Origin: Nonlabens ponticola
Lineage (GTDB): Bacteria > Bacteroidota > Bacteroidia > Flavobacteriales > Flavobacteriaceae
Length of the DNA stretch: 32,000 nucleotides
Direction: 5' to 3'
NCBI RefSeq assembly: GCF_003966335.1
Contig: NZ_CP034549.1
Span: 210,001-242,000, forward strand
This document shows, piece after piece, positions 1,243 through 26,049 of the stretch. The notes below the pieces were generated by a model, which was not told the origin of the DNA, did no database searches, and worked only from the letters and a program-made list of their open reading frames with translations. A program made the position numbers and the translations under genes. Within the stretch, counting starts at the first letter, position 1; each line of letters starts with the position of its first letter.

Positions 1243-1803
1243 CTAAAACTTTACCTGATCCACAGGCGTATCCTTTGAATTGAGCAAGCTTTTGCGCTTG
1301 TCGTGTAATTTAAAATGTACAAGGTTTTTTTGATCTGGAAATAGCTCAAACAGCGCCTTATAACTCAGCTCAACTGTATTCGGCTCTCTAGCTACGGGTA
1401 ATTCTATGTAGAGTAGTATCTGGTCTGCATCATATTCTGCGCCAATTACCTTGGGATCTATGTCCTTGCCGTCAATGGATGCCGTGAGGCGCTTAGGAAT
1501 ATATTTTTGAAATAGGGCTAGTTGTGACGGCAATGTTTCTGGGTTTCCTAGAATGACTTCCGTTCCAGTTCGAGCTTCCAGCACGTCCTGAAAATCATCA
1601 ATAAAGAATCTGGATACCATTTGCAGCGCTCCAGCCTTCTCACTGTATGCTACATTAGATACTGATAGATAGTATTTGTGGTCTGTGGTGTTTATGCTTT
1701 CGCGAAAGCGTAACTCCAACAAATCAACGTCTTCATGAGTAGAATTGTCAACAGGAATGGCCATACCGACAAGTGCGATCAAACCAAGAAAAAATAATTT
1801 CAT
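1243..1803 (-). CDS. Small secreted protein, DUF6702-like
   Basis: 186-aa ORF with an ATG start and N-terminal signal peptide (MKLFFLGLIALVGMA). The HKYYLSVSNVAYSEKAGALQMVSRFFIDDF block resembles the DUF6702 family that often neighbours M1 peptidase genes in flavobacteria. Palindrome copy 1 lies inside it and encodes RFRES. Confidence 0.6.
   Translation of the reverse strand: MKLFFLGLIALVGMAIPVDNSTHEDVDLLELRFRESINTTDHKYYLSVSNVAYSEKAGALQMVSRFFIDDFQDVLEARTGTEVILGNPETLPSQLALFQKYIPKRLTASIDGKDIDPKVIGAEYDADQILLYIELPVAREPNTVELSYKALFELFPDQKNLVHFKLHDKRKSLLNSKDTPVDQVKF
1696..1709. repeat. Palindrome copy 1, GCTTTCGCGAAAGC
   Basis: Exact match counted from the sequence. Right flank GTAAC. Lies inside minus-strand CDS 1243..1803, where it reads LRFRES. 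Confidence 0.97.
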
Positions 1804-1814
1804 AGAATATTAAT

Positions 1815-1838
1815 TACTGGCGCAAAATAAGCGCAGTA
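1815..1838 (-). terminator. Possible intergenic hairpin (weak terminator or attenuator) between two minus-strand genes
   Basis: TACTGGCGC-AAAATAA-GCGCAGTA forms an imperfect 8-bp stem with one bulged G. On the minus strand it is followed by AUUAAUAUUCU, which is only moderately U-rich. Confidence 0.3.
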
Positions 1839-1869
1839 CTGCTAGCTGCAAAAAGGATGCCTTACTCTT

Positions 1870-2712
1870 TTACTTCTTTTCCAGCGCGATATCTGGATCA
1901 CGTGATTTGAAGATCGTTGCAGTATCATCAAGAAACTTGAGTAATTCCAGCTCATTTTGAGACTCTAACATATCTCTATCAAGCCCACGTTCCTGTGCAA
2001 AAACCATGAATTCATACAAGTGCTTTTCCTTGATTTGTAAATAATCTACCAGATAATCCTTGTCATATTTGTTCTTGAGAAGTACCTCTTTAAACTGTGT
2101 TCTCTTTGAGGACAAATCGATATCAGCCGTGGCGGCATCATTATTAGTCAAAGCAGATCCTAGTACGCCCAGCAATAAACCTACGGCATTGAACATATTG
2201 AATCTAGGCTGGCTTTGCATAAATGCCTCCTTGCGTATGGTATAATCTTCTGGTTGTCGCACTCTATCTGAAAAGGTGTTCTCTACTCGATCGATACCTG
2301 CAATCCTGATGTTGCGCTCGCTTACCTCATCAATACCTAGATCAAGGTCTTCTACACGCACAACATCTACAATCATGGATTGATCCTCGATGATCACCTC
2401 ATCTAGAACGTTCACACCTTCATTAAGAGTAAGCTCAGTCGTGCCTCGTTTTACAGTAGCCTCACTTATGGTTAGAACAAACGGCTTGAATTGCACCGCT
2501 TGAAATGCCAGCTTATCACCAGCACGCACATCGATGTAAAAAACACCTAGCTCGTTGGTGACGGTACCTTCCAGGGTATTGTTATTAAACACGGTTATTC
2601 CATCAAGTGGATCCTGCGTATTTGTCAATATGCTGCCTTGCAACTGTGTGCGTTCAACTTGAGCGATAGCTGTCGTAGCAAACAGCACTAGTATTATCCA
2701 CAGGTATTTCAT
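1870..2712 (-). CDS. Carboxypeptidase-like regulatory domain (CarboxypepD_reg) protein, secreted
   Basis: 280-aa ORF with signal peptide MKYLWIILVLFATTAIAQ. This is followed by LQGSILTNTQDPLDGITVFNNNTLEGTVTNELGVFYIDVRAGDKLAFQAVQFKPF, typical of the CarboxypepD_reg beta-sandwich. Confidence 0.65.
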   Translation of the reverse strand: MKYLWIILVLFATTAIAQVERTQLQGSILTNTQDPLDGITVFNNNTLEGTVTNELGVFYIDVRAGDKLAFQAVQFKPFVLTISEATVKRGTTELTLNEGVNVLDEVIIEDQSMIVDVVRVEDLDLGIDEVSERNIRIAGIDRVENTFSDRVRQPEDYTIRKEAFMQSQPRFNMFNAVGLLLGVLGSALTNNDAATADIDLSSKRTQFKEVLLKNKYDKDYLVDYLQIKEKHLYEFMVFAQERGLDRDMLESQNELELLKFLDDTATIFKSRDPDIALEKK

Positions 2713-2783
2713 AATGATGAGCGATTTGTATTAATATAAAGTTATAAAGAGGCGCGTCAGCATTTTGCCTGTTTATTGTTAAA

Positions 2784-2791
2784 TACCTTTG
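2784..2791 (+). promoter_or_regulatory. Candidate Bacteroidota -7 promoter box (TAnnTTTG) for pepE
   Basis: TACCTTTG matches the TAnnTTTG consensus exactly and lies 17 nt upstream of the ATG at 2808. A TTTG at 2764..2767 could serve as the -33 element, but its spacing is shorter than the canonical distance. Confidence 0.35.
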
Positions 2792-2807
2792 AGCAAAGTC
2801 ACATTTT

Positions 2808-3521: not shown

Positions 3522-3553
3522 TTCCACTAACTTTAAACGATAACCACACCATC

Positions 3554-3841
3554 ATGAAACTAGACGATATACAACACAAACAAAACGACAGGCGCGGTAT
3601 CTTCTATTATAAAAAAGAAGATCACACCGTTGCGGAACTTACCTATTCCCTAGAAGATGATGTGATGGTGATTGATCATACTGAGGTGGATACCAAGCTA
3701 GAAGGAAAGGGAATGGGTGCCAAAATGGTTGAGAAGAGTTACGCTTTCGCGAAAGCTAACAACTACAAGATTAATCCACTATGTCCATTTGCCGAGGTAG
3801 TTTTTGACCGCAATCCAGACTGGAGCAGCGTGCGCGTATGA
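3554..3841 (+). CDS. Small GNAT-fold N-acetyltransferase (YjdJ-like, about 95 aa)
   Basis: Its size and the LEGKGMGAKMVEKSYAFAKANNYKINPLCPF block are typical of the short single-domain acetyltransferase family. Its TGA overlaps the next gene's ATG (ATGA at 3838..3841). Palindrome copy 2 lies inside it and encodes AFAKA. Confidence 0.7.
   Translation: MKLDDIQHKQNDRRGIFYYKKEDHTVAELTYSLEDDVMVIDHTEVDTKLEGKGMGAKMVEKSYAFAKANNYKINPLCPFAEVVFDRNPDWSSVRV
3743..3756. repeat. Palindrome copy 2, GCTTTCGCGAAAGC
   Basis: Exact match. Flanks are GTTAC on the left and TAAC on the right, giving a near 24-bp palindrome. Lies inside plus-strand CDS 3554..3841, where it reads AFAKA. Confidence 0.97.
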
Positions 3842-4380: not shown

Positions 4381-4810
4381 GGCTATAGAAACATATAGCG
4401 TGCGACATCCGGTTTTGCGCACTGGACGACCTGTAGAAACATGCAAGATGGATGGTGACGATCTAGAAAGCACCATTCATTTGGGTGCTTATGATGGTGA
4501 TTTGCTTGTTGGCGTGACCACATTGCTACTCGACTCAATTGCAGAATTAGATTACCTAAACCATTCCAAAGAAAAAACTTACCGCATGCGTGGCATGGGC
4601 GTACTTGCCAACCAACAAGGAAATGGTATTGGAAGAAAAATCGTAGAACATGCCGAAAACTTATTACGCGATAATGGGATCAAATTGCTATGGTTCAATG
4701 CTCGTATCGTTGCCATACCATTTTACTTGAAATTGGGCTTTATCAAATACGGTAACCAGTTTGATGTGCCCAATGTTGGGCCTCACTATAATATGTATAA
4801 AGAATTATGA
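4361..4810 (+). CDS. GNAT family N-acetyltransferase
   Basis: 149 aa. RGMGVLANQQGNGIGRKIVEHAE matches the Q/RxxGxG/A acetyl-CoA motif. It overlaps the upstream gene by 20 nt and the downstream gene by 4 nt (ATGA). Confidence 0.8.
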   Translation: MTIKEIEAIETYSVRHPVLRTGRPVETCKMDGDDLESTIHLGAYDGDLLVGVTTLLLDSIAELDYLNHSKEKTYRMRGMGVLANQQGNGIGRKIVEHAENLLRDNGIKLLWFNARIVAIPFYLKLGFIKYGNQFDVPNVGPHYNMYKEL

Positions 4811-6286: not shown

Positions 6287-6328
6287 ATTAAGTATTAAGT
6301 ATTAAGTATTAAGTATTAAGTATTAAGT
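6287..6328. repeat. Perfect tandem heptanucleotide array (ATTAAGT)x6
   Basis: Six exact head-to-tail copies counted directly. The array begins 8 nt after the M48 stop codon and ends 86 nt upstream of the ATG at 6415. Confidence 0.95.
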
Positions 6329-6414
6329 AAAGATGCCTTTTTTAGTGAAGTCCGGAACTATACTTTCATCTCAACCAAGATTTAAATTTAAGTTTCAATT
6401 TAATCGTTGAAATA

Positions 6415-7074: not shown

Positions 7075-10000
7075 TTACTCCTCAATCACCACTCTTATTC
7101 CTTCGCTATGACTAGAATATTCAGGTGCATACATGCATTCAAGTTGCGTGATACCGTTTGAGAATTGACCAGCGTTGTACGCACGTACATCATATTCAAA
7201 AACATAAGTTCCAGGTCTTAATTGATCAAAAAAGAAATTCGTCGCCACATCTTTAGTACTTTGATAGTAACCTAGACCATCATGATATTTGTATTTAGAA
7301 AGCACATCTACTGGTTCAAATCCACTGGCGCGCATGTCCTTGAGATGCACAAAATCAAGATCTTTTGTGCTGCGTATTTCTATGCGTACTGTAATCAAAT
7401 CGCCTATCGTTAACGGATCATTTGCTGTAATAGGGATTAACTTTTGACCAGTATCTGTATTTATTTTTTTGAATAGTTTTTTCTTGACAGACATCGGTAA
7501 ATCATCATCTATAGTGATTTTGTCTAGATTTTCAAAATATTGCCAGTACAAACCACCGTAACTTGGTACCTCGCTTTTATTCTTAACCTCAACAGTGGCA
7601 TAATCTGGTGTTACCGCCTTATCATTCAAAGACACTTTAAAGTATCCTGTTCCAGCCTCTTTTTGCACGGCATTCATCAAGGAATCTGGGATTGCTTTTC
7701 CTGCCCATTTTATCTGTGTGTTTTCCTTGACGTCTAGCCATTTGTTTCCTTGTAGCAACAGTGCGTATGTCGCATCAGCTGTGGCTTTGGTAGATTTCCA
7801 GCGATTGGGACGCTTATTTTGCAGCAACCATACTTTCAACTCTTCTACCTCTTTTTTATCACGATCCAACTCAGTAAATACCTCGATGGCCAGTGCCTGT
7901 GTCTCGATATCGCTGCTGTACCAGTTGTAGCCGTTGGTATTCTCTTTCCAGTACATTCCGTTTTCTGGGCTGTTGACGGCTGTTTGAGGCAGTCCTTCCA
8001 CGATTTTTTGGGCGAGTTGCTGCTGCCCATTACGGTACAAGCTTATCGCCATCAACAGTTGCTGGTAGATGGATTGAGAGCTGTATGAGGATTTTGCTTT
8101 CGCGAAAGCTAACTCACGACCATCTTTCAACAAACCAGACAAGCTGTTGTCATTGCCAAAACTGCGAGCGTACTGGTAGTGCCAGTAACTCATCCCAAAG
8201 TTGAATTTGTCCAACGTCTTATTGTTTCTCAAGTGGCGTTCAAAGCGATCTTTCCAATCCTTGTCCAGCGCCTTGATGGCATTGTTGTACATACGATCAG
8301 TCTGTGGGCGATCGCCATCATTGATGTTGAGTTGGTTCAAATGACCAATGCCGGCGGCGATGTGACGCGTGATGTATTCACTCTTGCTACCACCAGAAAA
8401 CCATGGGAAATAACCGCTAGATAGCTGTTTTGCCTCAAGTTGGGCAAGAATTTTCTTTTTCTCTCGAGCGGTTTTATCTAGATCAAAAAGTGTGGCGAGT
8501 CGCTGCTGTTTTTCAGCCTCTGATTGTGCGTCACGCAACCATGGCGTATGTGCGAGAATGATGGATTTGAGTTCCTCGTTCTTCTCAAGATTACTCTTGA
8601 GGCCGTCGTTTGCAGCCCAACTGTCAAAAACATCCTTGACCTTAGGATTGCTATTGAGAACATGCGCGGCTACGGAGTTTGCATAGAATCGCGAAAAAGT
8701 CTGCTCTGCACACTCGTGCTCATATTCCATAAGATAAGGAAGCGACTTGATGGCGTACCACGATGGATTTGAGGTGTACTCAAAAGTCAGCTGGTGGTTT
8801 GCTCGTGTGCTGGAAGTGGTGTTAGCCAACTTATCCATGGTCACGCTTGCCGTCTCGCCCGAGCGCACCCATAAAGCTCTAGATTCCGTCACCAGCATGC
8901 GATTGGTGAGCACCGGTAGCGTGTTTTCCTCACCATCAGAGAAATTTCCAGCCGTTGCTAGAACTCGGTACGTGACTGCTTGTGTGCCGATAGGCACGTG
9001 AAACGTCCAGTCAACGCTGGCGTTGCCATTTATAGGTGCGTCAAAATTCTTGACGCTTTTGTTGTTGCCTAGCTTTTCATCAATAGGTTGCATGGTGATG
9101 GCATCAAATAACTGCAAGGTTGCTTTACCGTTCATGATTTTGCCGGACAGATTGGCAATTTTGGTACTAAACCTAATTGTGTCAGTTTCCCGTAAAAATC
9201 GCGGCGGATTAGGAACTAGACTTAGCTCTTTTTGGGTACGCACCAATCCTTCAAACTGTGCCGTTTGCGCCTGTTTATTATGAGCAAACAATCTAAACTT
9301 CCATAAGGTCAAGGCCTCTGGCGATGTAAAACTAAACTTGAGATTTCCGTCTTTATCAGTATATAATTCTGGTAAGAAGAAAGCCGTTTCATTTAGATTT
9401 TTGCGGACTTCTATTTGCTGGAATGCGGCAGCTTGATTTGCAAGATCTGCTGCGGTGACACCTTCCTTTGTGCTTATGATAATGACGCCGTTTGATCCAC
9501 GACTACCGTAGATCGCTGTCGCGCCTGCGTCTTTGAGAACTGCGACTTCTTGGATGTCATTGGGATTTAACGCCTTGAATGTAGCTTCATCAACTATTTT
9601 ACCGTCGACGATGTATAATGGTTCTGCTGAACCATTTAAACTTGCTGCACCTCTTATTTTGACCATGGAATTAGCACCAGGTTGTCCAGAAGAAGTTATA
9701 ATTTCCAGCCCAGCTACTTGACCCTGTAAGGCAGACTCGGCCTGAACTTCTTCCATGTCACTCGATATAGTTGTGCTAGCAACGTTTGACATTCGCCTGC
9801 TTGTTGTTCTATAGCCAGTGACTACAACAGCTTCTAATGAAGCGCTCAAAACTGCATTTTGTACTAATGAGCCAGCAGTTATCGTTTTTTCATCATAACC
9901 GCTAAATGTATATTCTATGGTATCTCCAATATTGGCTTTAATCTTATAATTCCCATCAAAATCTGTGGTAACAGAATCATCATTGCCACTCACGATTACG

Positions 10001-13000
10001 GTGGCTCCTAATATTGGTTCACCACTAGCATCTGTAACCTTACCAACTATGAAACCAATTTCTGGTTTGAAGTTTATAAATTTTCTCTGAATTCCTCTTT
10101 TGTAATTGCCATAATAGTAATCGAAGTTCTCGAAACTTAAACCATGAAGATTAAAGGATTCCCTATCATCGTTAAGTGTAGGCTTAGGATTCTGTAAAAA
10201 GTGATAGAAGACATTAATCGATTGTGAAGCCAGCAAGCTTCTAGGCTTTTCAATTTCAAGTACACCTGCATAATTATAAAGACCTATACCTCGCCATGCT
10301 TTGGTAGCAAACTCGTCAAGACTCTTATCATACATACTGGCAAGAACCTCAGCTTGCATGCTGGTTTTATCTTGATCTTTTATGGTAAATGACCATTCTT
10401 CTGGCTCGCCTGGATAAAGCTTTTGTCTAAAGGTTTGTGTTGCAATGGTAAATTGCTGTCGTGGCGCGACAGGTTTGGTAACTTCAAATTGCTGGCTTGT
10501 AAATTGTCCTAGCTTTTGCACACTGTATTGAAACTTCAACGTTCTCCCATTGATGTTTTTCATCGGGAAACTCATCGTGGTCTTACCGTTGTTCAAATAA
10601 ATCCAACGAGTATCAATTACTTTTTTGAGATCATAGGTTGTCAAATACATGAACACACCATCAGCCGACGTATAAAAATCAACGACAGCTTGATCATCGT
10701 TGTAAATAGCACTATGAGTTACAATTGATGGTTGTGCCGGCCGGTCTTTATTTGCCCATATCTCTACGTCTCGTTTTTCATCTACAAAATCTTCTTCTTT
10801 TTCCAGACTCAGGTTGTTGTCTGCTTCTACTGCTTTAGCGTATAGAATGTAGGTGCCATTTTTCCATTCTCTAGTGATCGGTAATTCAATCGTTGCTAAG
10901 GAATCAGTGGTAGTAGTTTTTTTGAAAAGTATAGGTGCGTCTTTCCAGTCTTCTAGTTGCTCTTCTTTTCTCAATTCTGCATATGGGAACATTTTACGAT
11001 ATTCCTCAACAGATAATTCATGGAATTTTGCATCATTCAATTGATCCTCGATAACGACGTGATCAGCTGCTGATGATCGGCGCACCTGCAATTCAATATT
11101 TGCTTTTACAACTTCACCATTGAGGTTTTGTGCTTGAAGTTTTACGGTATTATTTTCTACCGATATAGGTCCTTGCACTAACATTTTAATCTCGATAGGC
11201 TTCTCACCTACTCGCACGCCGGTATATGCTTTTCTAGTCTCGCCGTTGACATCAGTTACCGACACGTCAATCGTATAATTGTAGATCAGGTTTCTCAGGT
11301 CTACATCATTGGCTATTTTCTCACCTGATTTGAAAGTGATGTCAAATTTTCCAGAGGCATCGGTAGTGATAGTATCAGTTGCAATAATGGGATCTGGCTC
11401 ATGAGAATAAGTACGTCTCAAGTATGGAATATTATCTGAATCTGGTACATTATGAATCGCTTGAGTGACATTATATATTACTTGAGCGCCAGTAATATTA
11501 CTACCTAACAGTGCCTTTGCTTTTCCCGTTACCGTAACTGAGTCACCAAAAACATACGTCTGGGTTACCGGTTCAAATTCTGTCTTAAAGCGAGGACGTT
11601 TGTATTCCTCAACTTTGAAAGAAACGTAACCAGCGTCAAAATCATCAATGAGATCCCAATAAGAATCCTCATCATCATAATCTATATCTATGGAAAATGA
11701 ACCCGTCAATCCATCTTCAGGAAGTATAAATGAGCCGTTGACACTACCGAATTCATTGGTTTCAACTGCTGTCTCAAAAACTTCATCACCAGAGGCATTA
11801 TCAACTGTCACAGTTAATTTTTTGTTTGATACAACTTTGGATTCACCATTCTTGTTTTCTACGAGAATGCTTTTGTAGTAAACTTTTTGCCCTGGTCGGT
11901 AAATGGCTCTATCTAGGTAGGTGTAGACTTTTACATTTCGGTAATCACTTTCTCTGTATTTACTAAAATAACCACGACTCAATGAAGTCCTTACCGTGTC
12001 ACCCTGGTTAATGGCTTCCAGCGAATATTGATAATACCGTCGAGGTAATGTGAAATCTACCTGACCATTTTTATCCGTTTTACCATGGAAGGATGTATAA
12101 CTCTTATTGCCTCTGTAAATGTTATATGAAACGTTAGTAAGTGGTTTTCCTGTGTTTCTTGAGGTAGCGGTGATGGTAGTTTGATTACTTGTCATACTAG
12201 TCGTCAAGGCGATATCAGTTACCTTCAATACAGAACCCGCTTTCATTTTCTTTTGGTCATTGGCATTTAAAAGGACTAAGTATGTTCCCATATCCATTCC
12301 AGACAACGCAAACTCATAGGTATGTAAAAACGTATCATCGCCTTGTGGCAAATTCAATTTCTTGATTTGAGCAAAATTATTTTTCTCACGCGCCTTTTGA
12401 AAATATGCGTTGTGAATAGAATCTCTATTTCCTTTGATGCGGTCAAAATCGTGTGGTACCCTGATAAAATAGACGGTTGCGTGGGTTACGTTTTGGTAAC
12501 TAGTTACACCTCTATAAGGTTGATTAGGCAATACGTTTTGTTGCAGCTGTGTACTTAATTTAGGTGCGTAGATGATGGATAGCAGATTAGTGCAATTCAC
12601 GCTACCCAAGGTTTCTGGATATTTCTCGATTGCGGATTTTGCAAGCTTAATGGCATTGGTACGATAGGCTTTTTGTTCTTCTGTCTCACCATTCTTAGAA
12701 ACCGTATAATAATATTGTGCTAGGCTATATTGCAACAATGTCACCTCTGGCACCGCAGCGTATTCATAAATGAGGTGTTGAATACCGTTCTCAAATTCTG
12801 CAATTTCTTGACTGCTGCTTATTTGTGATCGAGCATAATTGAATCGTTCATTGATAATTGATAAAAATGGTGCCGTTTCCTTACGTTTTTTGTGCAGCTG
12901 TTCTAGTTGGGCATATAATCGCAGGACATCATATTTACTGTAAATTGTGTCGTTTACTGGCCTTTTAAGATTCAGTATCTCTTGAGTAGGCAGGAAGGCG

Positions 13001-13653
13001 TTTGAAACTGTAAGAGTGAACGCGTCCTTAGGCATTGTGATTCCGTAAGCACTGGTTTTGTAAAATTCCAGCGCTTCTTGCGCGAGAATATCCAGCAAAC
13101 TAGGTCGATACTTGCGTGATAGCGGATTGATATTCATGATCACATCATAATCGCCGGCAGGAACTTTGGCCAGCTTGTCTGATTTTTCAAGTGACGCTTG
13201 AAATAAATCAGAAAGTCGAGCATAAAATGTCTTGATATCCCACGTCTTAAAATCATCTCCAGCATCATCCATGGCTGTGCGGTTATTGATGCGATAACGA
13301 TTTGCCGTCAAGTATTGCTCTAACAATTGTGCCTTGAGCGAGATGTAAATATTGCTTTCTGGAAACGAGCTTCCATCAATTTGCTTATCAAGCTCATTAA
13401 TGATGTTTACTTGAGCATTTTCTACATTGATCAATTTGAATTTTGATCTAAACAAAAAGACTTTGATCAATTGAGCATCGTCATTTTTGCGGTTGGCTTT
13501 CTTGTAGATGTTGTCTAATATCTCACTGGCGTCAGTGATATTATTCTCAACTTCAAGCTTCTCGACTTTACGCCACAACTCGTTATAATCCTGCGCTATT
13601 ACAGCATTAATTCCACAAAGTAACACAACCAGACCTGCAATAAAATTTCTCAT
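7075..13653 (-). CDS. Giant alpha-2-macroglobulin family protein with thioester motif and an internal CarboxypepD_reg + TonB-Plug (SusC-like) module
   Basis: The track ORF opens GTG-TTG-TTT-ATG. I take the ATG at 13653 (MRNFIAGLVVLLCGINAVIAQ, a signal peptide). The thioester-type motif YEHECAEQT places CAEQ at 8701..8712. The C-terminal region is A2M-complement/receptor-like. Residues around GKVTDASGEPILGATVIVSG...VVVTGYRTTS...LQGQVAGLEI...IRGAASL...PLYIVDGK...IQEVAVLKDAGATAIYGSRGSNGVIIISTKEG (about 9460..10053) match SusC N-terminal modules. Confidence 0.85.
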   Translation of the reverse strand: MRNFIAGLVVLLCGINAVIAQDYNELWRKVEKLEVENNITDASEILDNIYKKANRKNDDAQLIKVFLFRSKFKLINVENAQVNIINELDKQIDGSSFPESNIYISLKAQLLEQYLTANRYRINNRTAMDDAGDDFKTWDIKTFYARLSDLFQASLEKSDKLAKVPAGDYDVIMNINPLSRKYRPSLLDILAQEALEFYKTSAYGITMPKDAFTLTVSNAFLPTQEILNLKRPVNDTIYSKYDVLRLYAQLEQLHKKRKETAPFLSIINERFNYARSQISSSQEIAEFENGIQHLIYEYAAVPEVTLLQYSLAQYYYTVSKNGETEEQKAYRTNAIKLAKSAIEKYPETLGSVNCTNLLSIIYAPKLSTQLQQNVLPNQPYRGVTSYQNVTHATVYFIRVPHDFDRIKGNRDSIHNAYFQKAREKNNFAQIKKLNLPQGDDTFLHTYEFALSGMDMGTYLVLLNANDQKKMKAGSVLKVTDIALTTSMTSNQTTITATSRNTGKPLTNVSYNIYRGNKSYTSFHGKTDKNGQVDFTLPRRYYQYSLEAINQGDTVRTSLSRGYFSKYRESDYRNVKVYTYLDRAIYRPGQKVYYKSILVENKNGESKVVSNKKLTVTVDNASGDEVFETAVETNEFGSVNGSFILPEDGLTGSFSIDIDYDDEDSYWDLIDDFDAGYVSFKVEEYKRPRFKTEFEPVTQTYVFGDSVTVTGKAKALLGSNITGAQVIYNVTQAIHNVPDSDNIPYLRRTYSHEPDPIIATDTITTDASGKFDITFKSGEKIANDVDLRNLIYNYTIDVSVTDVNGETRKAYTGVRVGEKPIEIKMLVQGPISVENNTVKLQAQNLNGEVVKANIELQVRRSSAADHVVIEDQLNDAKFHELSVEEYRKMFPYAELRKEEQLEDWKDAPILFKKTTTTDSLATIELPITREWKNGTYILYAKAVEADNNLSLEKEEDFVDEKRDVEIWANKDRPAQPSIVTHSAIYNDDQAVVDFYTSADGVFMYLTTYDLKKVIDTRWIYLNNGKTTMSFPMKNINGRTLKFQYSVQKLGQFTSQQFEVTKPVAPRQQFTIATQTFRQKLYPGEPEEWSFTIKDQDKTSMQAEVLASMYDKSLDEFATKAWRGIGLYNYAGVLEIEKPRSLLASQSINVFYHFLQNPKPTLNDDRESFNLHGLSFENFDYYYGNYKRGIQRKFINFKPEIGFIVGKVTDASGEPILGATVIVSGNDDSVTTDFDGNYKIKANIGDTIEYTFSGYDEKTITAGSLVQNAVLSASLEAVVVTGYRTTSRRMSNVASTTISSDMEEVQAESALQGQVAGLEIITSSGQPGANSMVKIRGAASLNGSAEPLYIVDGKIVDEATFKALNPNDIQEVAVLKDAGATAIYGSRGSNGVIIISTKEGVTAADLANQAAAFQQIEVRKNLNETAFFLPELYTDKDGNLKFSFTSPEALTLWKFRLFAHNKQAQTAQFEGLVRTQKELSLVPNPPRFLRETDTIRFSTKIANLSGKIMNGKATLQLFDAITMQPIDEKLGNNKSVKNFDAPINGNASVDWTFHVPIGTQAVTYRVLATAGNFSDGEENTLPVLTNRMLVTESRALWVRSGETASVTMDKLANTTSSTRANHQLTFEYTSNPSWYAIKSLPYLMEYEHECAEQTFSRFYANSVAAHVLNSNPKVKDVFDSWAANDGLKSNLEKNEELKSIILAHTPWLRDAQSEAEKQQRLATLFDLDKTAREKKKILAQLEAKQLSSGYFPWFSGGSKSEYITRHIAAGIGHLNQLNINDGDRPQTDRMYNNAIKALDKDWKDRFERHLRNNKTLDKFNFGMSYWHYQYARSFGNDNSLSGLLKDGRELAFAKAKSSYSSQSIYQQLLMAISLYRNGQQQLAQKIVEGLPQTAVNSPENGMYWKENTNGYNWYSSDIETQALAIEVFTELDRDKKEVEELKVWLLQNKRPNRWKSTKATADATYALLLQGNKWLDVKENTQIKWAGKAIPDSLMNAVQKEAGTGYFKVSLNDKAVTPDYATVEVKNKSEVPSYGGLYWQYFENLDKITIDDDLPMSVKKKLFKKINTDTGQKLIPITANDPLTIGDLITVRIEIRSTKDLDFVHLKDMRASGFEPVDVLSKYKYHDGLGYYQSTKDVATNFFFDQLRPGTYVFEYDVRAYNAGQFSNGITQLECMYAPEYSSHSEGIRVVIEE
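8096..8109. repeat. Palindrome copy 3, GCTTTCGCGAAAGC
   Basis: Exact match. Left flank ATTTT, right flank TAAC. Lies inside the minus-strand A2M gene, where it reads AFAKA. Confidence 0.97.
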
Positions 13654-13764
13654 AAACAACACTTAACTTTTAAAAATACTCAATCTCACGATGAACTGTC
13701 AATGGATGCTGGCACAATTAGCATACCGCATCTGCTTTGGTATCCTTTTTGATATTTTTGAAAC

Positions 13765-14508
13765 ATGAAAATGCTATTCCTATTCACAGCCCTTATTTTT
13801 TGTTATTCTGTTAGTGGTCAGTCAGCTTTCGCGAAAGCGGAACAACTATCCCAGCAATCCAACTACAAACAAGCCATACCGCTCTACAAGGAAGCATTGC
13901 AAGCGGCACCAAAAGACGCCAAAATCTTGATGGCAACGGGAAAAGCATACGGCGAGCTGAAGCAGTTTGAAGAAGCCAGCGAGGTCTATAAAAAACTACT
14001 CGCTATCGATGAATCCATCGCCGACTACCACTTTTACTACGGTGGCTCACTGGGATTGTATGCCAAAAACAGCTCAAAACTCAAAGCGCTGGGCATGCTG
14101 GACGATGTAAAATTTCACTTAAAAAAAGCTGCCGAACTTGATGAAAACCATATAGAAACACGCTGGGCATTAGTCCAGATGTACTGCGAGCTACCGGGAA
14201 TCGTAGGCGGATCTGTTGCAATATCAAGAGAATATGCCGCAGAGCTCGCCAAGATATCGCCAGTCGATGGCTACCTAGCCACAGGCTGGATCGAGATCTA
14301 TGAAGAGAACTACAAGGAAGCAGAAGTTGCCCTAAAAAAAGCAGTAGAAATAGGCAACTCGCCAACCACATACCTCAAACTGGCCGAACTATACAGCAAG
14401 CACATGGATCGCGATGATCTTGCCATAAAAACGCTGCAAAAAGCAGATTCTCAATCTGATGATAAGCGTATTAATGTGGCATTAAAAAGATTAAAAAGTA
14501 AAAACTAG
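13765..14508 (+). CDS. Secreted tetratricopeptide-repeat (TPR) protein
   Basis: Signal peptide MKMLFLFTALIFCYSVSGQ. Repeated A-x-x-Y-x-x-A-L helix-pair patterns follow (YKQAIPLYKEALQAAP, FEEASEVYKKLLAI, YKEAEVALKKAVEI). Palindrome copy 4 encodes AFAKA just after the signal peptide. Confidence 0.65.
   Translation: MKMLFLFTALIFCYSVSGQSAFAKAEQLSQQSNYKQAIPLYKEALQAAPKDAKILMATGKAYGELKQFEEASEVYKKLLAIDESIADYHFYYGGSLGLYAKNSSKLKALGMLDDVKFHLKKAAELDENHIETRWALVQMYCELPGIVGGSVAISREYAAELAKISPVDGYLATGWIEIYEENYKEAEVALKKAVEIGNSPTTYLKLAELYSKHMDRDDLAIKTLQKADSQSDDKRINVALKRLKSKN
13825..13838. repeat. Palindrome copy 4, GCTTTCGCGAAAGC
   Basis: Exact match. Right flank GGAAC. Lies inside the plus-strand TPR gene, where it reads AFAKA. 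Confidence 0.97.
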
Positions 14509-19829: not shown

Positions 19830-20174
19830 TTAAAATTTATCCAGATGAGTATGCTTAAATGCATCAGGATATTTGAGACCGTAACCCAGCATCCTGTCAA
19901 AGCCTATGTGAGCAAATAGAATCCAGCCAGCCATTTGAACCCATTCTGTATTAAGCAGGTATCCAGCCGCGATACAAAGCGTGGCAATCATCAGGTGATG
20001 AAACAAATTATAGGTAATTGCGCCTACTTTGGTGTTCACCACATACCCTAGCATACTTATATCTGGCGCAAGGAAAAAACCTGCAAACCACCACCAGTTA
20101 AATCCTGCCAGTCCATAACCAGCAATTCCTGCGAGCATCAACGCCAGCCCTTCTAGTTGTAATTGAATTTTCAT
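19830..20174 (-). CDS. DUF4260-like small membrane protein
   Basis: 114 aa and very hydrophobic. The FFLAPDISMLGY and HIGFDRMLGYGLKYP blocks match my recollection of DUF4260. Confidence 0.6.
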   Translation of the reverse strand: MKIQLQLEGLALMLAGIAGYGLAGFNWWWFAGFFLAPDISMLGYVVNTKVGAITYNLFHHLMIATLCIAAGYLLNTEWVQMAGWILFAHIGFDRMLGYGLKYPDAFKHTHLDKF

Positions 20175-20992
20175 AAAATCTTATACAAGATAGGCCTTGA
20201 AGGTGCTGCATCATTTTCAATAGGTGCGATTTGTAAATCCAGAACATACATTCCATCGGCGGCGGCATCAGGCACATAGATCAGCTCTGTGATGGTGGCA
20301 TCTAGCCGTTGCTCGCCATCATAATCCCAGAATTCCTTATGCGCCACTAGTGCACCATTGTCCTTTTCTTTATCGACACTGGGTAAATCGATAAGGACGT
20401 GTTTGATTCCGCTTTCGCGAAAGCGTAACATCACACCAGCATCCAGATAAGGTGGATTTGTATTGCTATAATTCTTGCTTTTCTTGCTCGTTGGATTGGG
20501 TGTCGTTCTAATGATTACGGCATCAATTTCCTGATCCAAATCCTCAAACATACCTGCGGTAATCACCTGATCATCGCCACGAGACTCAGGATTTACCGTC
20601 ACTAATTGTGCTACAAAAAAAGTGTTTTTAAGTGCGTCATTGACGCTGTGAAATTCTTCTGTGATGTGCCCGATACATTCCGTATGCGTCCCATGACTAT
20701 GCGGATTAAAAAACACATCGTTGAAGTTTGTGCTGCCACCTAGCGCGACCTTGCCTACATATCCATCTACCTCTACATGCGTGATCTTGGGCTGGTCGAT
20801 ATACCACGCGCCCACGCCGGCGTCGTGTTGTACGGCGAGACTTATGTCGATGGGTTGCTGTAGATCAATTTGATAATGAGAATTATTGAGGAGTATGTTT
20901 GATGTCACAGGATCGTCGTTTGATGGTGAGGTTTTGATCTGGCAGCTTATGAGTAAGCAAAGCGCGCAAACCAGAAATAAAAATTGCTTCAT
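20171..20992 (-). CDS. Putative cyclase family protein (kynurenine formamidase-like fold), secreted or lipoprotein
   Basis: 273 aa with signal peptide and Cys (LCLLISC). The HSHGTHTECIGH block resembles the HxGTHxDxPxH cyclase motif. Palindrome copy 5 encodes RFRES. There are 4-nt overlaps at both ends. Confidence 0.55.
   Translation of the reverse strand: MKQFLFLVCALCLLISCQIKTSPSNDDPVTSNILLNNSHYQIDLQQPIDISLAVQHDAGVGAWYIDQPKITHVEVDGYVGKVALGGSTNFNDVFFNPHSHGTHTECIGHITEEFHSVNDALKNTFFVAQLVTVNPESRGDDQVITAGMFEDLDQEIDAVIIRTTPNPTSKKSKNYSNTNPPYLDAGVMLRFRESGIKHVLIDLPSVDKEKDNGALVAHKEFWDYDGEQRLDATITELIYVPDAAADGMYVLDLQIAPIENDAAPSRPILYKIL
20411..20424. repeat. Palindrome copy 5, GCTTTCGCGAAAGC
   Basis: Exact match. 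Flanking C and G extend it to a 16-bp palindrome, and the right flank is GTAAC. Lies inside the minus-strand cyclase-like gene, where it reads LRFRES. Confidence 0.97.
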
Positions 20993-22125
20993 GATGTAAG
21001 GTTAAGCATGAATAACTCGCTGGCTATGCCATCACTCAGGAATTTTCCCTTGCGCGTTACCAGTAGCGTCTTATCGTCTAAATATAATAAATGATCCTTG
21101 AGATAGGTCGCGGCTTGTTCCAGCAGGTATTCCCTAAAACGCAGACCATATTCTTTCTCAACATGAACCAGCGACACACCATAAACCGTACGCAAACCGG
21201 TCATTACATACTCATTGTATCGATCGATGATCGTGAGTTCCTCTACTTCCTGCGGTAGATTTCCTGCCTCGATAGCCTTGATGTATTTGACATTGTTGTT
21301 GATATTCCACGCACGTCTATTTCCATCAAAACTGTGCGCGCTAGGCCCAATTCCTAGATAGGATTTGCCAGTCCAGTAAGCTGTATTGTTACGCGAGAAA
21401 AAACCTTTTTTACTGAAGTTTGAAAACTCATAGTTCTCATAACCATGCAACTGCATTACATCCAGTAAAATATTAAACTGCCGCTGCGCCTGCTCATCAT
21501 CAACTGGCTGCATCACGCCTTTATCGATGAACTTCTTGAGTGCTGTGCCGTCCTCTACCGTCAACGCATAGCTGGAGATATGCGGCACATCCAGCTCAAT
21601 CGCTTGATACAAATTCTCACGCCACTGCTCATCTGTCAAACCAGGAATACCATAAATCAGGTCTATAGATATGTTGGGAAACAGCTTTCGCGAAAGCTGA
21701 ATACTCTCCATCGCCTCTATTGCATTATGAGCTCGATTCATCAATTTGAGATCCTGCTCGTGAAATGATTGCACTCCTATGCTTAATCTATTGATTTGAG
21801 ATGCTGCTAGCGACTCAATCTTGGCTGGTGTGAGGTCATCTGGATTAGCTTCTAGGGTGATCTCTAGATTAACGGCGCAATTATATAGGTTAAATACTTC
21901 CTTAAGTATTAGGTCGATTTCTTCAACTTCCAACACACTAGGTGTACCACCACCAAAGTAGATGCAACTCACCTCGACATCCTTAAACTCGTGACGACGC
22001 AACCTTAACTCCTCGCACAACGCATTGATCATAAATGATTTATTCTTAAGTGAAGTCACAAAATGAAAGTCACAATAATGACAAGCCTGCTTGCAAAAAG
22101 GAATGTGAATATAGATACTTGCCAT
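20989..22125 (-). CDS. hemW: Radical SAM heme chaperone HemW (coproporphyrinogen III oxidase-like)
   Basis: The track ORF starts at TTG 22134. I prefer the ATG at 22125, which gives MASIYIHIPFCKQACHYCDF with the CxxxCxxC radical-SAM cluster motif, followed by GGGTPS. Palindrome copy 6 encodes LSRK. Confidence 0.9.
   Translation of the reverse strand: MASIYIHIPFCKQACHYCDFHFVTSLKNKSFMINALCEELRLRRHEFKDVEVSCIYFGGGTPSVLEVEEIDLILKEVFNLYNCAVNLEITLEANPDDLTPAKIESLAASQINRLSIGVQSFHEQDLKLMNRAHNAIEAMESIQLSRKLFPNISIDLIYGIPGLTDEQWRENLYQAIELDVPHISSYALTVEDGTALKKFIDKGVMQPVDDEQAQRQFNILLDVMQLHGYENYEFSNFSKKGFFSRNNTAYWTGKSYLGIGPSAHSFDGNRRAWNINNNVKYIKAIEAGNLPQEVEELTIIDRYNEYVMTGLRTVYGVSLVHVEKEYGLRFREYLLEQAATYLKDHLLYLDDKTLLVTRKGKFLSDGIASELFMLNLTS
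21684..21697. repeat. Palindrome copy 6, GCTTTCGCGAAAGC
   Basis: Exact match. Flanks CA and TG extend it to an 18-bp palindrome, CAGCTTTCGCGAAAGCTG. Lies inside minus-strand hemW, where it reads QLSRKL. Confidence 0.97.
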
Positions 22126-22301
22126 ACACAACAAAAGTAGTTTACAAACGTTAGGGTACCGTTAAAGAATCTCTCAAACCCTAAATCGAGGTCAAACATT
22201 GTTAAATCCTATATTTTAACTACGTGCATTCCTTATATTGAGTAGGTTCGGCATGGTTTATGAAACTATTAACACGAACCTAAAAAACTGATAAAAACAT
22301 T

Positions 22302-23252
22302 ATGATATACCGTCTCTTTTTAATCTTATTTCTAGCTGGAACCCTTGCCACTAGCGCAGCCGATAAATTACCAATGGTAGATATGTCTGTTGAGAGTAAA
22401 GAGGTTCTAACTTTTCAAAATGCTAAGCTCCAATTGAATCTTAAAAATCAATTGATGGCTAATCCAAAGTGGAGATCGCTTATCAATCAAAAGCGCTTAT
22501 CGTTAAGTATTGTCGATCTCAATGATCCAGATAACATTAAATACGCGAGCATCAATGGTGCAAACATGATGTATGCAGCTAGCTTGCCGAAAATCGCAGT
22601 ATTATATGCGGCCATGGACGCCATCGAGAATGGTGAACTAAAAGACACACCTAAAGTGCGTCAAGACATGTGGCTCATGATATCTAAGTCAAATAATGCA
22701 GCGTCTACACGTATGATTGACCGAGTAGGTTTTCAGAAAATCGAAGACTTGATGTGCGATCCTACAAATCCATTTTATGATAAAGATGGTGTTGGTGGAT
22801 TGTGGGTTGGTAAACGATATGCAGCCCAAGGAAAACGCAATCCAGAACCTATCAAAGGTTTAAGTCACGCTGCCACTACAGACGCTGTTGCAAAATTTTA
22901 CTACCAACTTGCTACTGGTCAATTGATCAATGAGCAACGCAGTAAAGAGATGCTAGACATCATGGAAAATCCTAGCCTGCACCACAAGTTTGTGAATACG
23001 CTTGATCGTATTGCACCACAAGCACGCTTGTTTAGAAAAAGTGGATCATGGAGAAACTGGCACAGTGATTCCATTCTGGTTTGGGGCGACAATGGACGCA
23101 AGTATATTCTTGTGGCGTTGGTAGAAGATCCTGCAGGTGAAAACATTATTAGAAGTTTAGTAAAGCCAGCGGAATTGGCGATGCGCAAATCTGTTATCTT
23201 GCCTACACTACTTGATACAGAAGATGGAGCAACTATCCAACAGGGTACGTAA
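22302..23252 (+). CDS. Secreted serine hydrolase, class A beta-lactamase fold
   Basis: Signal peptide MIYRLFLILFLAGTLATSAA. Motifs occur in the canonical order: S-x-x-K (ASLPKIA), S-x-N (SKSNNAAS) and K-S-G (RKSGSW). Confidence 0.75.
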   Translation: MIYRLFLILFLAGTLATSAADKLPMVDMSVESKEVLTFQNAKLQLNLKNQLMANPKWRSLINQKRLSLSIVDLNDPDNIKYASINGANMMYAASLPKIAVLYAAMDAIENGELKDTPKVRQDMWLMISKSNNAASTRMIDRVGFQKIEDLMCDPTNPFYDKDGVGGLWVGKRYAAQGKRNPEPIKGLSHAATTDAVAKFYYQLATGQLINEQRSKEMLDIMENPSLHHKFVNTLDRIAPQARLFRKSGSWRNWHSDSILVWGDNGRKYILVALVEDPAGENIIRSLVKPAELAMRKSVILPTLLDTEDGATIQQGT

Positions 23253-26049
23253 AATATTTGACATTAGGAGTGGCGAGCTTTCGATCTCGTTGCTCATGCA
23301 ACTATACATTTTCTTAATCATAAGTGCATTGCTCGTAGTAAAACCTACGGTCAATGCACTTTTTCTTTCTGAGCTAGGAGCGGATGCTCTTGCCGAGGCT
23401 TTTATTATAATCGCAGTTGCCGCTGTAGTAGGTTCCTTTCTATATAATAGATCGCTTGAGCGCTTTAAACTCAAGAAACTTATACGTGGTACATTAATCG
23501 TTTTTACGGTTATTTTTTCCATCATGGGCGTGCTCGTCATGCTGGGCAATTTCGGGCCTATTCTTGCCTATTTTTTCTATACGACCGTCGCACTATTTGC
23601 GTTGCTGGCGACCTCCCAATTTTGGGTGATGGCAAATGTGGTCTTCAACGTACGTGAGGCCAAAAGACTTTTTGGTTTCATAGGAGCTGGTGGTATTGCC
23701 GGTGGTATTGTAGGTGGTTACATGACATCATTGCTAGCTGAATCGTTAGGAAATGGAGCCTTATTGATTATTGCTGCTGTTTTGATCGCATCATGTATTT
23801 GGGTGATGAATGCCATTTGGCGTACTCGAGTCAATAAGTTGAGTAGTTTTAAGCGCAAGGAACGAGCTACGGTAAGTAGTGAGAATAGCGTCAAGCTTAT
23901 CCTTAATTCAAAGCATTTGACGGCTCTTGCGGCGGTAATTGGTATAGGTGTTCTTGTCGCAAAGCTTGTTGACTATCAATTTAGCTATATATCATCGCGA
24001 GCGATTCCAGATTCACAGGAATTGGCATCCTTTTTTGGTTTCTGGTTCTCGACATTTAATATTGTATCGTTAGCAATACAGCTATTTATAACCAGACATA
24101 TTTTATCTCGATCAGGTGTTAGCGCAAGTTTAGGAGTGCTGCCGTTGGGATTAGTATTGTGTGGCATTGCCCTACTATTAGTTCCAGAACTCTGGATCGT
24201 TGTCGTTATGAAAGGTCTAGATGGTAGCCTTAAACAATCATTGCATAAAAGTGCGGTAGAACTGCTTGCCTTGCCCATCCCTAGCGATGTAAAAAATAAG
24301 ACCAAAACCTTCATCGATGTAGTTGTAGATAGCCTTGCCACAGGCCTTGCTGGATTGATACTCATATTTATTATACGCGCCTTTGACCTAGCACCAGCAT
24401 ATATAACCGTACTCATCATTCTACTGGTAGTGGCTTGGGTGATCATGATTATTAAAGTGCGCGACGCCTACTTTGGTACATTTAAAGAACAGATCATTAC
24501 TCGTGAGCAAATTAAGCTAGAGAAACGATCCAATACGCGCATACGTAATAACATGCGCGTCATTTTTGAATCTGGTGGTGTTGAAGATATCATGTACATG
24601 CTTGCTCGCGTACCAGAACTAGCCCATAAGTCGCTTAAGAATCCGCTGGTCAAATTACTTGTGCACAAAAACCCAAAAGTTAAAGCAGCTGCGATACGAC
24701 AACTTAAGCACGTAGATCGTGGTCAGCCTTTAGGTCAAGTTCAAGATTTGATCTATGAAAAAAATGACGAGGTCGTTCTTGCAGCGATGCAATACCTCAT
24801 GTCTAAGGATACTAAATATCCTGAACAATTCTTTGAAGCCTATCTAGATCACGAGAGTGATTATATCTCAAGTGCCGCGCTGCTATGCCTTGCCCAAGAG
24901 ACTGAGGATAATCCAAAATTAGCATCAAAATATAATCTTGACCTGCGCATCAATCTCTTTCTAGATGAACTGGATCGCCATGAGGACAACTTCCGTAAAG
25001 GTGAGATCATTGAATTAATAAAGGCAATAGGATATGCCAAAGGTGACAACCGCCACAAGTTTATACTGCGCTATCTTAAAAATCCTGATGAGGATCTTCA
25101 TAAAGCAGCCTTGGTCGCTGCAGGAAACACTTCTCATGAACGATTTCTTCCTATTTTACTCGATGAATTAAAGGAAGCACGCTTTCGCGAAAGCGCAATC
25201 AAAGCCATCTCATCCTATGGCAACAGCATTATCAATTATTTAAAAAAGCGTTACACTGACCCTAGCGCAGCGCTGGCTCACAAGAAATACATTCCAGATG
25301 TGTTGATAGATCTGGGAACTAACAAATCTCTGCGTGCGGTATTGCAATTGACTCAATCCGGTAGCCCAGAGATACGCACGCGTACCACCGACAAATTATA
25401 TAATTATAAAAAGGCCAATGGTGATTTAGAAATACCACAAAAAATATATGCCCGATTGATACGTCAGGAATGTGATGAATACATGACATTACAGCAATGC
25501 TATTACAGCCAGCGCGTGGTAGAGCGTTCTAAACTACATCCTGAACGTGTTATAGATATAACTGAGACAGGCTCACGTGAAGAGCTGATTAAACTTTTAT
25601 CTAAACGTATGGATGACGGTATCAAGCGCATCTTTAATATCCTTGCATTGCATTTTAATACAAGGGATGTCTTTATCGCTTTTAAAGGATTGACTAGCGA
25701 GAAAAAGGAAACAAGATCTGCGACGCTAGAGTTTATGGAAGGATTGATAACGCGCAACTATAAGTCACTACTCTTTCCAATATTAGAACAAGGTATCAAT
25801 AATGCAGAGATAGATCCCAACACAGTTGCTGATCGCGTACAACTATTAGAAGAAGATAAATGTTACTTACGAATGCTGGATACGGAAGATCGCAAGCTAG
25901 GATTACTTACCATCCAGATTATTGCAGATTCTTCAAATAAAAAGTGGTTGCCCATACTTGTACGAGCAACCACTAATAAGGATTCTAAAATCGCTGCCGC
26001 TGCATCGCGTGCCTACCAGCAAATGAGCGGTGTTTCACGCACCGCGTAA
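23224..26049 (+). CDS. Polytopic transporter (ATP:ADP antiporter/Npt-like, MFS-type) fused to a C-terminal HEAT-repeat domain
   Basis: The track start at 23212 is TTG. I take the ATG at 23224 (MEQLSNRVRKIFDIRSGELSISLLMQLYIFLII...). About 12 hydrophobic helices fill the first ~430 aa. About 500 aa of helical repeats follow (NPKVKAAAIRQL, NDEVVLAAMQYL, DEDLHKAALVAAG, ESAIKAISSYG, SPEIRTRTTDKL, DSKIAAAASRAY). The N-terminal pattern resembles the COG3202 Npt1/Npt2 family, recalled from memory. Palindrome copy 7 encodes RFRES. Confidence 0.7.
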   Translation: MEQLSNRVRKIFDIRSGELSISLLMQLYIFLIISALLVVKPTVNALFLSELGADALAEAFIIIAVAAVVGSFLYNRSLERFKLKKLIRGTLIVFTVIFSIMGVLVMLGNFGPILAYFFYTTVALFALLATSQFWVMANVVFNVREAKRLFGFIGAGGIAGGIVGGYMTSLLAESLGNGALLIIAAVLIASCIWVMNAIWRTRVNKLSSFKRKERATVSSENSVKLILNSKHLTALAAVIGIGVLVAKLVDYQFSYISSRAIPDSQELASFFGFWFSTFNIVSLAIQLFITRHILSRSGVSASLGVLPLGLVLCGIALLLVPELWIVVVMKGLDGSLKQSLHKSAVELLALPIPSDVKNKTKTFIDVVVDSLATGLAGLILIFIIRAFDLAPAYITVLIILLVVAWVIMIIKVRDAYFGTFKEQIITREQIKLEKRSNTRIRNNMRVIFESGGVEDIMYMLARVPELAHKSLKNPLVKLLVHKNPKVKAAAIRQLKHVDRGQPLGQVQDLIYEKNDEVVLAAMQYLMSKDTKYPEQFFEAYLDHESDYISSAALLCLAQETEDNPKLASKYNLDLRINLFLDELDRHEDNFRKGEIIELIKAIGYAKGDNRHKFILRYLKNPDEDLHKAALVAAGNTSHERFLPILLDELKEARFRESAIKAISSYGNSIINYLKKRYTDPSAALAHKKYIPDVLIDLGTNKSLRAVLQLTQSGSPEIRTRTTDKLYNYKKANGDLEIPQKIYARLIRQECDEYMTLQQCYYSQRVVERSKLHPERVIDITETGSREELIKLLSKRMDDGIKRIFNILALHFNTRDVFIAFKGLTSEKKETRSATLEFMEGLITRNYKSLLFPILEQGINNAEIDPNTVADRVQLLEEDKCYLRMLDTEDRKLGLLTIQIIADSSNKKWLPILVRATTNKDSKIAAAASRAYQQMSGVSRTA
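25181..25194. repeat. Palindrome copy 7, GCTTTCGCGAAAGC
   Basis: Exact match. Flanking C and G extend it to 16 bp. Lies inside the HEAT domain of the plus-strand transporter gene, where it reads RFRES. Confidence 0.97.

Follow-up and report, generated by a model that had tools for sequence, protein, structure and literature searches.

The window analysed here, a 32-kb stretch of Nonlabens ponticola DNA, contains eight exact copies of one 14-base palindrome, GCTTTCGCGAAAGC (hereafter the word). Seven of the eight lie within unrelated genes, in three reading frames and on both coding strands, and one is intergenic. The word was absent from 100 dinucleotide-preserving shuffles of the window, and no form with one or two mismatches was found in the window by a search that tolerated up to two mismatches. 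Together with the loci from related genomes, metagenomes and phages described below, these copies define an abundant, evenly spaced signal that is made by substitution and maintained at the DNA level, a description in which we place high confidence. The eight copies are listed below, with host families assigned by Pfam and peptides obtained by six-frame translation.

1696..1709, copy 1: within a DUF6702 gene (1243-1803, minus strand), encoding RFRES; flanks gtgtttat and gtaactcc
3743..3756, copy 2: within the gene of a 95-aa GNAT protein (Acetyltransf_CG; 3554-3841, plus strand), encoding AFAKA at residues 64-68
8096..8109, copy 3: within the gene of a 2195-aa alpha-2-macroglobulin-like (A2M) protein (7075-13662, minus strand), encoding AFAKA
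13825..13838, copy 4: within a TPR protein gene (13765-14508, plus strand), encoding AFAKA at about residue 21
20411..20424, copy 5: within a putative cyclase gene (20171-20992, minus strand), encoding RFRES
21684..21697, copy 6: within a hemW-like radical SAM gene (20989-22134, minus strand), encoding LSRK
25181..25194, copy 7: within a TLC/MFS transporter gene with HEAT repeats (23212-26049, plus strand), encoding RFRES
30317..30330, copy 8: intergenic, in a divergent region, ~100 nt upstream of a probable ATG near 30217 (PPDK_N-domain gene)

Copy 8 was classed as intergenic because the PPDK_N-domain gene probably starts (MNKLLLPL...) downstream of it; the divergent gene, with its start at 30444, is ~115 nt away. 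The first-pass annotation, made from the sequence alone, had placed the palindrome in seven unrelated genes, in all three frames and on both strands, with AFAKA and RFRES encoded three times each and LSRK once, in three plus-strand and four minus-strand hosts. The re-scan, the Pfam assignments, the translations and the gene strands agree with it on these points; its range of 1696-25194 holds for the seven genic copies and leaves out the eighth at 30317.

Lineage range, spacing and upkeep of the word

Two proteins encoded in the window match proteins of N. ponticola, on a contig of 2,872,100 bp, at 100% identity. The range of the word was surveyed in 80 loci around hemW orthologues (1.49 Mb in total, nearly all Flavobacteriaceae). 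Among these, the only carriers were four Dokdonia loci (6, 3, 6 and 4 copies per 21 kb) and one Leeuwenhoekiella locus (a single copy). Syntenic Nonlabens loci (N. antarcticus, Nonlabens sp. YIK11, N. xiamenensis, N. tegetincola, N. spongiae and two N. spongiae relatives) contain 4-8 copies each, and the syntenic Croceibacter locus contains none. In Nonlabens and Dokdonia taken together, 65 copies occur in 266 kb of 12 loci, or 1 per 4.1 kb, against ~0.001 expected by our own estimate for a 14-mer; no copy was found in 1.40 Mb of 76 other loci, nearly all from Flavobacteriaceae. Among the loci sampled, the signal is specific to Nonlabens and Dokdonia. Extrapolation from the locus density gives ~700 copies per 2.87-Mb genome. 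The 76 other loci showed no palindromic 'dialects' of the word, and no symmetric two-mismatch variant was enriched. The searchable literature held no description of the 14-mer, whether in connection with HIP in Bacteroidetes, with palindromes in Dokdonia or Nonlabens, or with uptake sequences in Flavobacteri*, and the word in these two genera has apparently not been described so far. The lone perfect copy in 21 kb of Leeuwenhoekiella sp. A16 (L120:8607), with flanks that look atypical by eye, may reflect low-density use in that genus or may be a relic.

A metagenome scan with the 16-mer CGCTTTCGCGAAAGCG as query retrieved 104 low-GC marine contig stretches with 171 perfect copies in 674 kb. 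Low-GC viral contigs also carry the word with the typical flanks described in the following section. The phage contig L089 (IMGVR_UViG_3300031224_000073), which encodes portal, protease and major head proteins, has copies at 191, 6705 and 11185 (three in 12 kb), again with typical flanks. On this contig and the related contigs L114 and L117 the spacing of the word is host-like, and phage copies fall in an HNH endonuclease gene and a head-protease gene.

The copies are spaced evenly. In the 12 bearing loci, whose length of ~20 kb captures short-range spacing only, below the 10-90 kb scale of the periodicity of the highly iterated palindrome HIP1, 53 inter-site gaps average 3.4 kb with a minimum of 1273 bp. 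No gap is shorter than 1 kb (23% expected), and the coefficient of variation (CV) is 0.46 versus 0.88 expected, with none of 5000 simulations as even. The metagenomic set behaves similarly: 67 gaps have a CV of 0.55 versus 0.87, 9% of them are shorter than 1 kb versus 29% expected, and none of 2000 simulations was as even. Long genes carry several sites each, at least 2 kb apart, and the spacing rule therefore follows distance rather than genes.

Individual sites are conserved well beyond their surroundings. The window and locus L200 are 71% identical at the nucleotide level over 17 kb and only 1.9% of 14-mers are perfectly conserved, yet all 5/5 aligned sites are perfect; in locus L199, 3/3 aligned sites are perfect. 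The A2M site is intact in all five Nonlabens species compared, at a local amino acid identity of 45-69%, and the TPR site in four Nonlabens species at 27-54%. The cyclase site is kept in three Nonlabens species and the transporter site (copy 7) in Nonlabens sp. YIK11. The hemW site is common to the two genera; the orthologous position is perfect in Nonlabens sp. YIK11 and in three Dokdonia loci. Orthologous positions showed either no mismatch or at least three. Among the three members of the N. spongiae group (~80% nucleotide identity), 4/5 sites are perfect in each relative and one site is decaying, with two mismatches at outer positions.

Forms close to the word are scarce. Counts at 0, 1, 2 and 3 mismatches are 65, 4, 2 and 15 in the bearing loci versus 0, 1, 12 and 58 in 1.40 Mb of controls; expressed per Mb, one-, two- and three-mismatch forms number 15, 7.5 and 56 versus 0.7, 8.5 and 41. 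The metagenomic loci show a modest halo (171, 18 and 21 copies at 0, 1 and 2 mismatches), composed mostly of outer-position variants and of a form, GCTTTCGCGGAAGC, that is also found in tsf, the gene for EF-Ts. Almost only the perfect word is over-represented, and recognition is nearly all-or-none. In tsf the one-off form encodes ASAKA and remains unconverted in all three N. spongiae-group species.

Some irregular copies were seen in the same loci. The tsf form (L203:19488-19501, L205:20084-20097 and L206:19506-19519, within a region that is 93% identical) sits inside a ~7.7-kb stretch otherwise devoid of the word, and it is the commonest one-off form in the metagenomic loci. The hemW copy of Dokdonia sp. 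MAG-87 (L126:10429-10466) is split and reads GCT/cctgtctgccgaacaggcagg/TTCGCGAAAGC; the word is interrupted by a 21-bp insertion that forms a hairpin (stem of 8 bp including one G-T pair, loop of 5 nt) and preserves the frame, so that the protein gains LSAEQAG. At L206:13651-13668 the left part of the word is replaced by an 18-bp perfect palindrome, TCCCGATAGCTATCGGGA, followed by TCGCGAAAGC, and L203 (13650) and L205 (13727) are perfect at the equivalent position. After MAG-87, this is the second case of a different small palindrome at a copy of the word; TCCCGATAGCTATCGGGA is unique among all loci analysed.

Origin of the sites and anatomy of their flanks

The constraint on the word acts on the nucleic acid, as the first-pass annotation had proposed. 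In word-bearing loci, 26/26 AFAKA, 10/10 RFRES and 22/24 LSRK peptides are encoded by GCTTTCGCGAAAGC, and the ~499,000 residues of open reading frame (ORF) space in wordless Flavobacteriaceae contain no AFAKA, no RFRES and four LSRK. Exact conservation of AFAKA or RFRES in taxa that lack the word, the finding that would have pointed to the protein level, was not observed in these Flavobacteriaceae. Synonymous positions inside the word do not vary. Classification of 175 non-redundant sites by ORF context placed 114 (65%) in long ORFs and 44 (25%) strictly between genes, with 17 ambiguous; sites are enriched between genes, taking the coding fraction as ~90% by our own estimate, and they also occur between convergent genes and in promoter regions. 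The distribution of frames, which the annotation had suggested checking, shows all three in use in the sampled loci: across genomic and viral loci, AFAKA was encoded 21 times, LSRK 14 times and RFRES 8 times, and 14 sites had no ORF. The host proteins carry whichever peptide results from selection or drive on the DNA.

Comparison with wordless orthologues shows how the sites came about. At the hemW site, 75 wordless orthologues read L-A-[T/K]-[K/R] without any indel, and in Nonlabens and three Dokdonia the word encodes L-S-R-K here. For the cyclase, outgroups read [Y/F][I/L/F]RE[S/L/K]G and two of them already contain TTTCGCGAAAGC; in Nonlabens, replacement of Tyr/Phe by Arg (CGC) completes the palindrome and yields RFRES. 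The 72 wordless cyclase orthologues are gapless across the site, and most of the orthologues listed have no indel. GNAT homologues have E[Y/F]AR[E/K/T] in place of the Nonlabens AFAKA, with a gap within three residues in only 1/120, and the A2M gene shows lineage-specific gains without indels, for example AAFAKAN versus AVYEKAL and AYFQKAR. The sites thus arise by point substitution at pre-existing near-matches, without indels. The first-pass annotation had left a choice between substitution and insertion of a longer unit with decayed flanks, to be decided by aligning orthologues; the peptides replace existing residues in hemW, the cyclase, GNAT and A2M, which favours the former and leaves nothing for the latter. 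Its further suggestion, that the peptides be mapped onto structures, was followed for GNAT only, where a predicted model (pLDDT 94) puts AFAKA at the C-terminal end of helix 54-68. A restriction of sites to variable protein segments was considered and rejected: the hemW site is at the 87th entropy percentile, but the GNAT helix site is at the 32nd.

The annotation had also drawn a likeness to Rickettsia palindromic elements (RPEs). Both are palindromic repeats inside protein genes that still function. RPEs are inserted segments of ~100-150 bp, which lengthen the protein by a stretch of peptide and form long hairpins. The comparison fails because nothing is inserted here, five codons being rewritten in place, and no stable hairpin forms.

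The word is embedded in a larger structured unit. Position +1 is G in 72-91% of sites and positions +3 and +4 are A in ~55-67%, which extends the symmetry to TTNC-GCTTTCGCGAAAGC-GNAA. From +4 to ~+19 and beyond, the 3' flank of each strand is A/C-rich and G falls to 2-12% versus 19-20%; on each strand, ~20 nt located 5' of the word are correspondingly G/T-rich. Sites of every frame class and intergenic sites all show this pattern, and 140 independent metagenomic sites reproduced it. The hemW and cyclase flanks have 13-16 'favoured' G/C placements in orthologues with the word versus 8.3-8.7 (sd 2.2) in those without; the skew therefore accompanies the word, and in these two genes it appears tied to the motif rather than to the protein context. 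The element is a two-fold symmetric DNA signal ~50 bp long with an invariant core of 14 bp.

Several structural readings of the unit were tried. An extended stem-loop was ruled out because flank complementarity and folding energy match the controls: flanks of the same site form 5.07 pairs versus 4.98 for flanks of different sites, and natural flanks fold no better than chimeric or random ones. The 14-mer itself folds with only -1.9 kcal/mol as RNA and -2.1 kcal/mol as DNA. A terminator was likewise rejected; one of the eight window copies (copy 7, antisense strand) fits a lax terminator pattern, and the flanks are T-rich upstream and A-rich downstream, the opposite of a terminator. The element matched no Rfam family and showed no promoter signature. 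A 3-nt periodicity of A in the flanks was not significant by permutation (P ~0.1-0.17).

Known counterparts and candidate functions

To our knowledge, in-depth analyses of such words exist for only three cases: the DNA uptake sequences (DUS) of Neisseriaceae, the uptake signal sequences (USS) of Pasteurellaceae and the cyanobacterial HIP1 (GCGATCGC). HIP1, for which cognate methyltransferases are known, is like the word a perfect palindrome, lineage-specific and hyper-abundant, and occurs in all frames and in non-coding DNA. It is described as spreading by nucleotide substitution, as here (Robinson 1997, as cited in PMC4390886). HIP1 sites are conserved between genomes beyond neutral expectation, and their distribution is non-random and periodic (PMC5861425); conservation at orthologous sites, a trait of HIP-type words, is found here too, in 5/5 and 3/3 aligned sites against a background of ~2%. 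Transformation is enhanced by HIP1, which has been proposed to act like an uptake sequence or like Chi (bioRxiv 10.1101/2024.09.10.611283; 10.64898/2026.06.24.733823). One-off variants are common for HIP1 (PMC4390886) and nearly absent here. The two words further differ in sequence, phylum and length (14 bp, or 16-22 bp with the symmetric flanks, versus 8 bp), the word here is 4-10 times sparser, and strand-skewed flanks of ~20 nt have not been described for HIP1.

The resemblance to DUS and USS is of a different kind. These are exact words of 9-12 bp with hundreds to thousands of copies in family- or genus-specific dialects, and both an uptake bias and a receptor (ComP-type) have been demonstrated for them. 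Like the word, they occur in all reading frames, are enriched outside genes and are dispersed on both strands, and USS share with it a weaker extended flank consensus. DNA uptake enhancing sequences (DUES) evolve by point mutation, and their abundance drops sharply from the perfect to the one-off forms (PMC1939737); USS accumulate in temperate phages (PMC6776037). About half of DUS and USS are inverted pairs in terminators, and a 2025 survey places such sequences in two proteobacterial families only (bioRxiv 10.1101/2025.10.24.684340). On this comparison, the word would be a signal of the HIP/DUES type in a new phylum, with a distinctive anatomy.

Since DUS/USS and HIP1 are the closest match to this set of features, we favour, tentatively and as somewhat short of an even chance, a function as a HIP1- or DUS-like site of self-DNA recognition in DNA uptake and/or recombination. 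The signal would be read as duplex DNA by a highly specific, two-fold symmetric protein. Near-matches in any frame, and preferentially in spacers, are turned into the word by point substitution, and the perfect word is then held by selection or drive at the DNA level. It would serve as a 'self' tag in natural transformation, acting on DNA uptake and/or on subsequent recombination. We propose that the spacing is even because a tag within ~1 kb makes a second one redundant. Natural competence is known in the same family from Riemerella, and R. columbina shows a preference for its own DNA, with no uptake sequence defined so far (PMC7965970).

Several points weigh against self-DNA recognition. We know of no competence in Nonlabens or Dokdonia. 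Known DUS and USS are non-palindromic, denser (~1 per kb) and often paired in terminators, whereas the word is palindromic and has no terminator association. Their mismatched forms are over-represented in a graded fashion, in contrast to the near-exclusive excess of the perfect word. Strand-skewed flanks of ~20 nt are not known for DUS or USS, and neither these flanks nor the extreme sequence homogeneity is explained by an uptake model; the two are the most interesting features of the signal. The evidence consists of ~1 Mb of sampled loci, many of them mutually orthologous, rather than whole genomes.

Two other readings assign the word to chromosome biology. It could bind a protein, particular to this lineage, that organises the nucleoid or maintains the chromosome; a loop anchor, a condensin, a segregation factor or a topoisomerase would be examples. 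Selection would then act directly on chromosome structure and have nothing to do with uptake. A perfect palindrome flanked symmetrically points to a protein that acts as a dimer or larger oligomer and covers ~50 bp, the spacing is regular, and such a role has been proposed for HIP1 (PMC5861425). This reading seems unlikely to us: known sites of this class (parS, NBS, SBS and matS) number tens rather than hundreds and are degenerate, carriage by phages is less expected, and each of ~700 sites would need its 28 bits to be maintained by direct selection. ParB-type sites such as parS and NBS (palindromes of 14-16 bp, TGTTNCACGTGAAACA or ATTTCCCGGGAAAT type) also differ in sequence, the TTTC/GAAA arms being 2 bp closer here, and they occur in a few to tens of copies near the origin, against 1 per 4 kb in every locus sampled here. 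Alternatively, the word could be a Chi-like signal in double-strand-break repair, a palindrome being readable from either side by AddAB/RecBCD-type enzymes and the G/T-rich ~20 nt 5' of it becoming a 3' tail for RecA nucleation. Chi, like the word, is spaced by a few kb, has GT-rich flanks and can lie inside genes in any frame. E. coli Chi has a density similar to the ~1 per 4 kb found here, RecA prefers GT-rich single-stranded DNA, and the G/T-rich stretch is found 5' of the word on both strands. Even spacing and carriage by a phage contig would also fit, and such a role has been suggested for HIP1 (bioRxiv 10.1101/2024.09.10.611283). We nevertheless hold it to be quite unlikely, since known Chi sites have 5-8 nt, are asymmetric and oriented with replication, and are only modestly over-represented, so that 14 exact bases are far longer than any known example, and a word with a chance expectation of zero must be built from nothing, site by site. 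The periodicity of A in the flanks, at P ~0.1, does not speak for Chi either.

The remaining readings require no DNA-binding function of this sort. A functionless by-product of biased repair or methylation-linked correction, as in Elhai's HIP1 model, would have near-matches converted and the word protected from mutation. The nested palindromes CGCG, TCGCGA and TTCGCGAA are possible methyltransferase targets, forms with one or two mismatches are nearly absent, and phage contigs carry the word at host-like density. Even spacing, intergenic enrichment and skewed 20-nt flanks are, however, unexpected from a local repair bias, the tsf form is unconverted in three species, no known repair system reads 14 bp, and TCGCGA outside the word is at chance in the window (6 versus ~5 expected from base composition), all of which makes this origin improbable. 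CGCG outside the word is also at chance level in the window, and neither TCGCGA nor CGCG shows signs of being avoided as a restriction site; the window ORFs examined and the synteny comparison yielded no methyltransferase gene, although no search was aimed at such genes. At the RNA level, every transcript across the word carries GCUUUCGCGAAAGC, which could form a hairpin, dimerise or serve as a nuclease site; the RNA word is identical whichever strand is transcribed, and its flanks in the mRNA are always G/U-rich upstream and A/C-rich downstream. This we regard as highly improbable given the weak hairpin, to which natural flanks add nothing, the lack of site-specific complementarity between flanks, the Rfam and terminator results above, and the sites between convergent genes and in promoter regions; moreover, a signal in genes of both orientations need not be palindromic. 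Hardly any credence is left for a mobile or inserted element (RPE-like, or like repetitive extragenic palindromes, REP, or miniature inverted-repeat transposable elements, MITEs) or for a convergent peptide motif, although the word is repeated and palindromic and two disrupted copies carry small palindromic insertions. These are already refuted for the sites examined: no indel separates orthologues with and without the word in the genes compared, target duplications and a long hairpin are absent, the peptides are missing from wordless relatives and synonymous positions are invariant. REP and bacterial interspersed mosaic elements (BIMEs), moreover, are intergenic, imperfect palindromes of 20-40 bp, unlike the largely coding sites here.

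Such words influence the make-up of proteomes, delimit species in gene exchange and are useful as practical tools. An independent fourth case, from another phylum and with a long exact core, structured flanks and regular spacing, would be a clean system for studying how such signals are written and kept. The cyclase, with its change from Tyr/Phe to Arg, is a clear example of selection on DNA overriding protein sequence. The word could serve as a ready marker for assigning phages and metagenomic contigs to hosts, and it could raise transformation efficiency for genetics in Nonlabens and Dokdonia. If it is a self-DNA tag, marine flavobacteria of ecological importance may be exchanging DNA through transformation. 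That the word is the first sequence-specific self-DNA tag in Bacteroidota, namely a 14-22 bp palindrome with strand-skewed arms that signals uptake or recombination through a putative two-fold symmetric receptor, is a doubtful proposition. If true, the abundant marine genera Nonlabens and Dokdonia would be naturally transformable with a preference for self, and sister clades would use other words, such as the TTCCGAAG found in Salinimicrobium, Zunongwangia and Autumnicola.

Other repeats in neighbouring clades and in the window

The non-palindromic 8-mer TTCCGAAG occurs 19 times, in both orientations, in 21 kb of Salinimicrobium sp. GXAS 041 (L164), where ~0.5 copies are expected. Zunongwangia has 7 copies in 11.8 kb and Autumnicola 9 in 21 kb (loci L160 and L180), and the 8-mer may be a different hyper-abundant word of a neighbouring clade. 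In the window, a perfect tandem repeat, (ATTAAGT)x6, occupies 6287-6329 in the spacer after an M48 peptidase gene. The 8-mer CACCATCA/TGATGGTG is dispersed over 13 positions of the window (for example 683, 740, 3547, 3663 and 30301) and ATCATCGC occurs 11 times, where ~0.9 copies are expected from base composition alone; the excess of both may be a codon or peptide effect.

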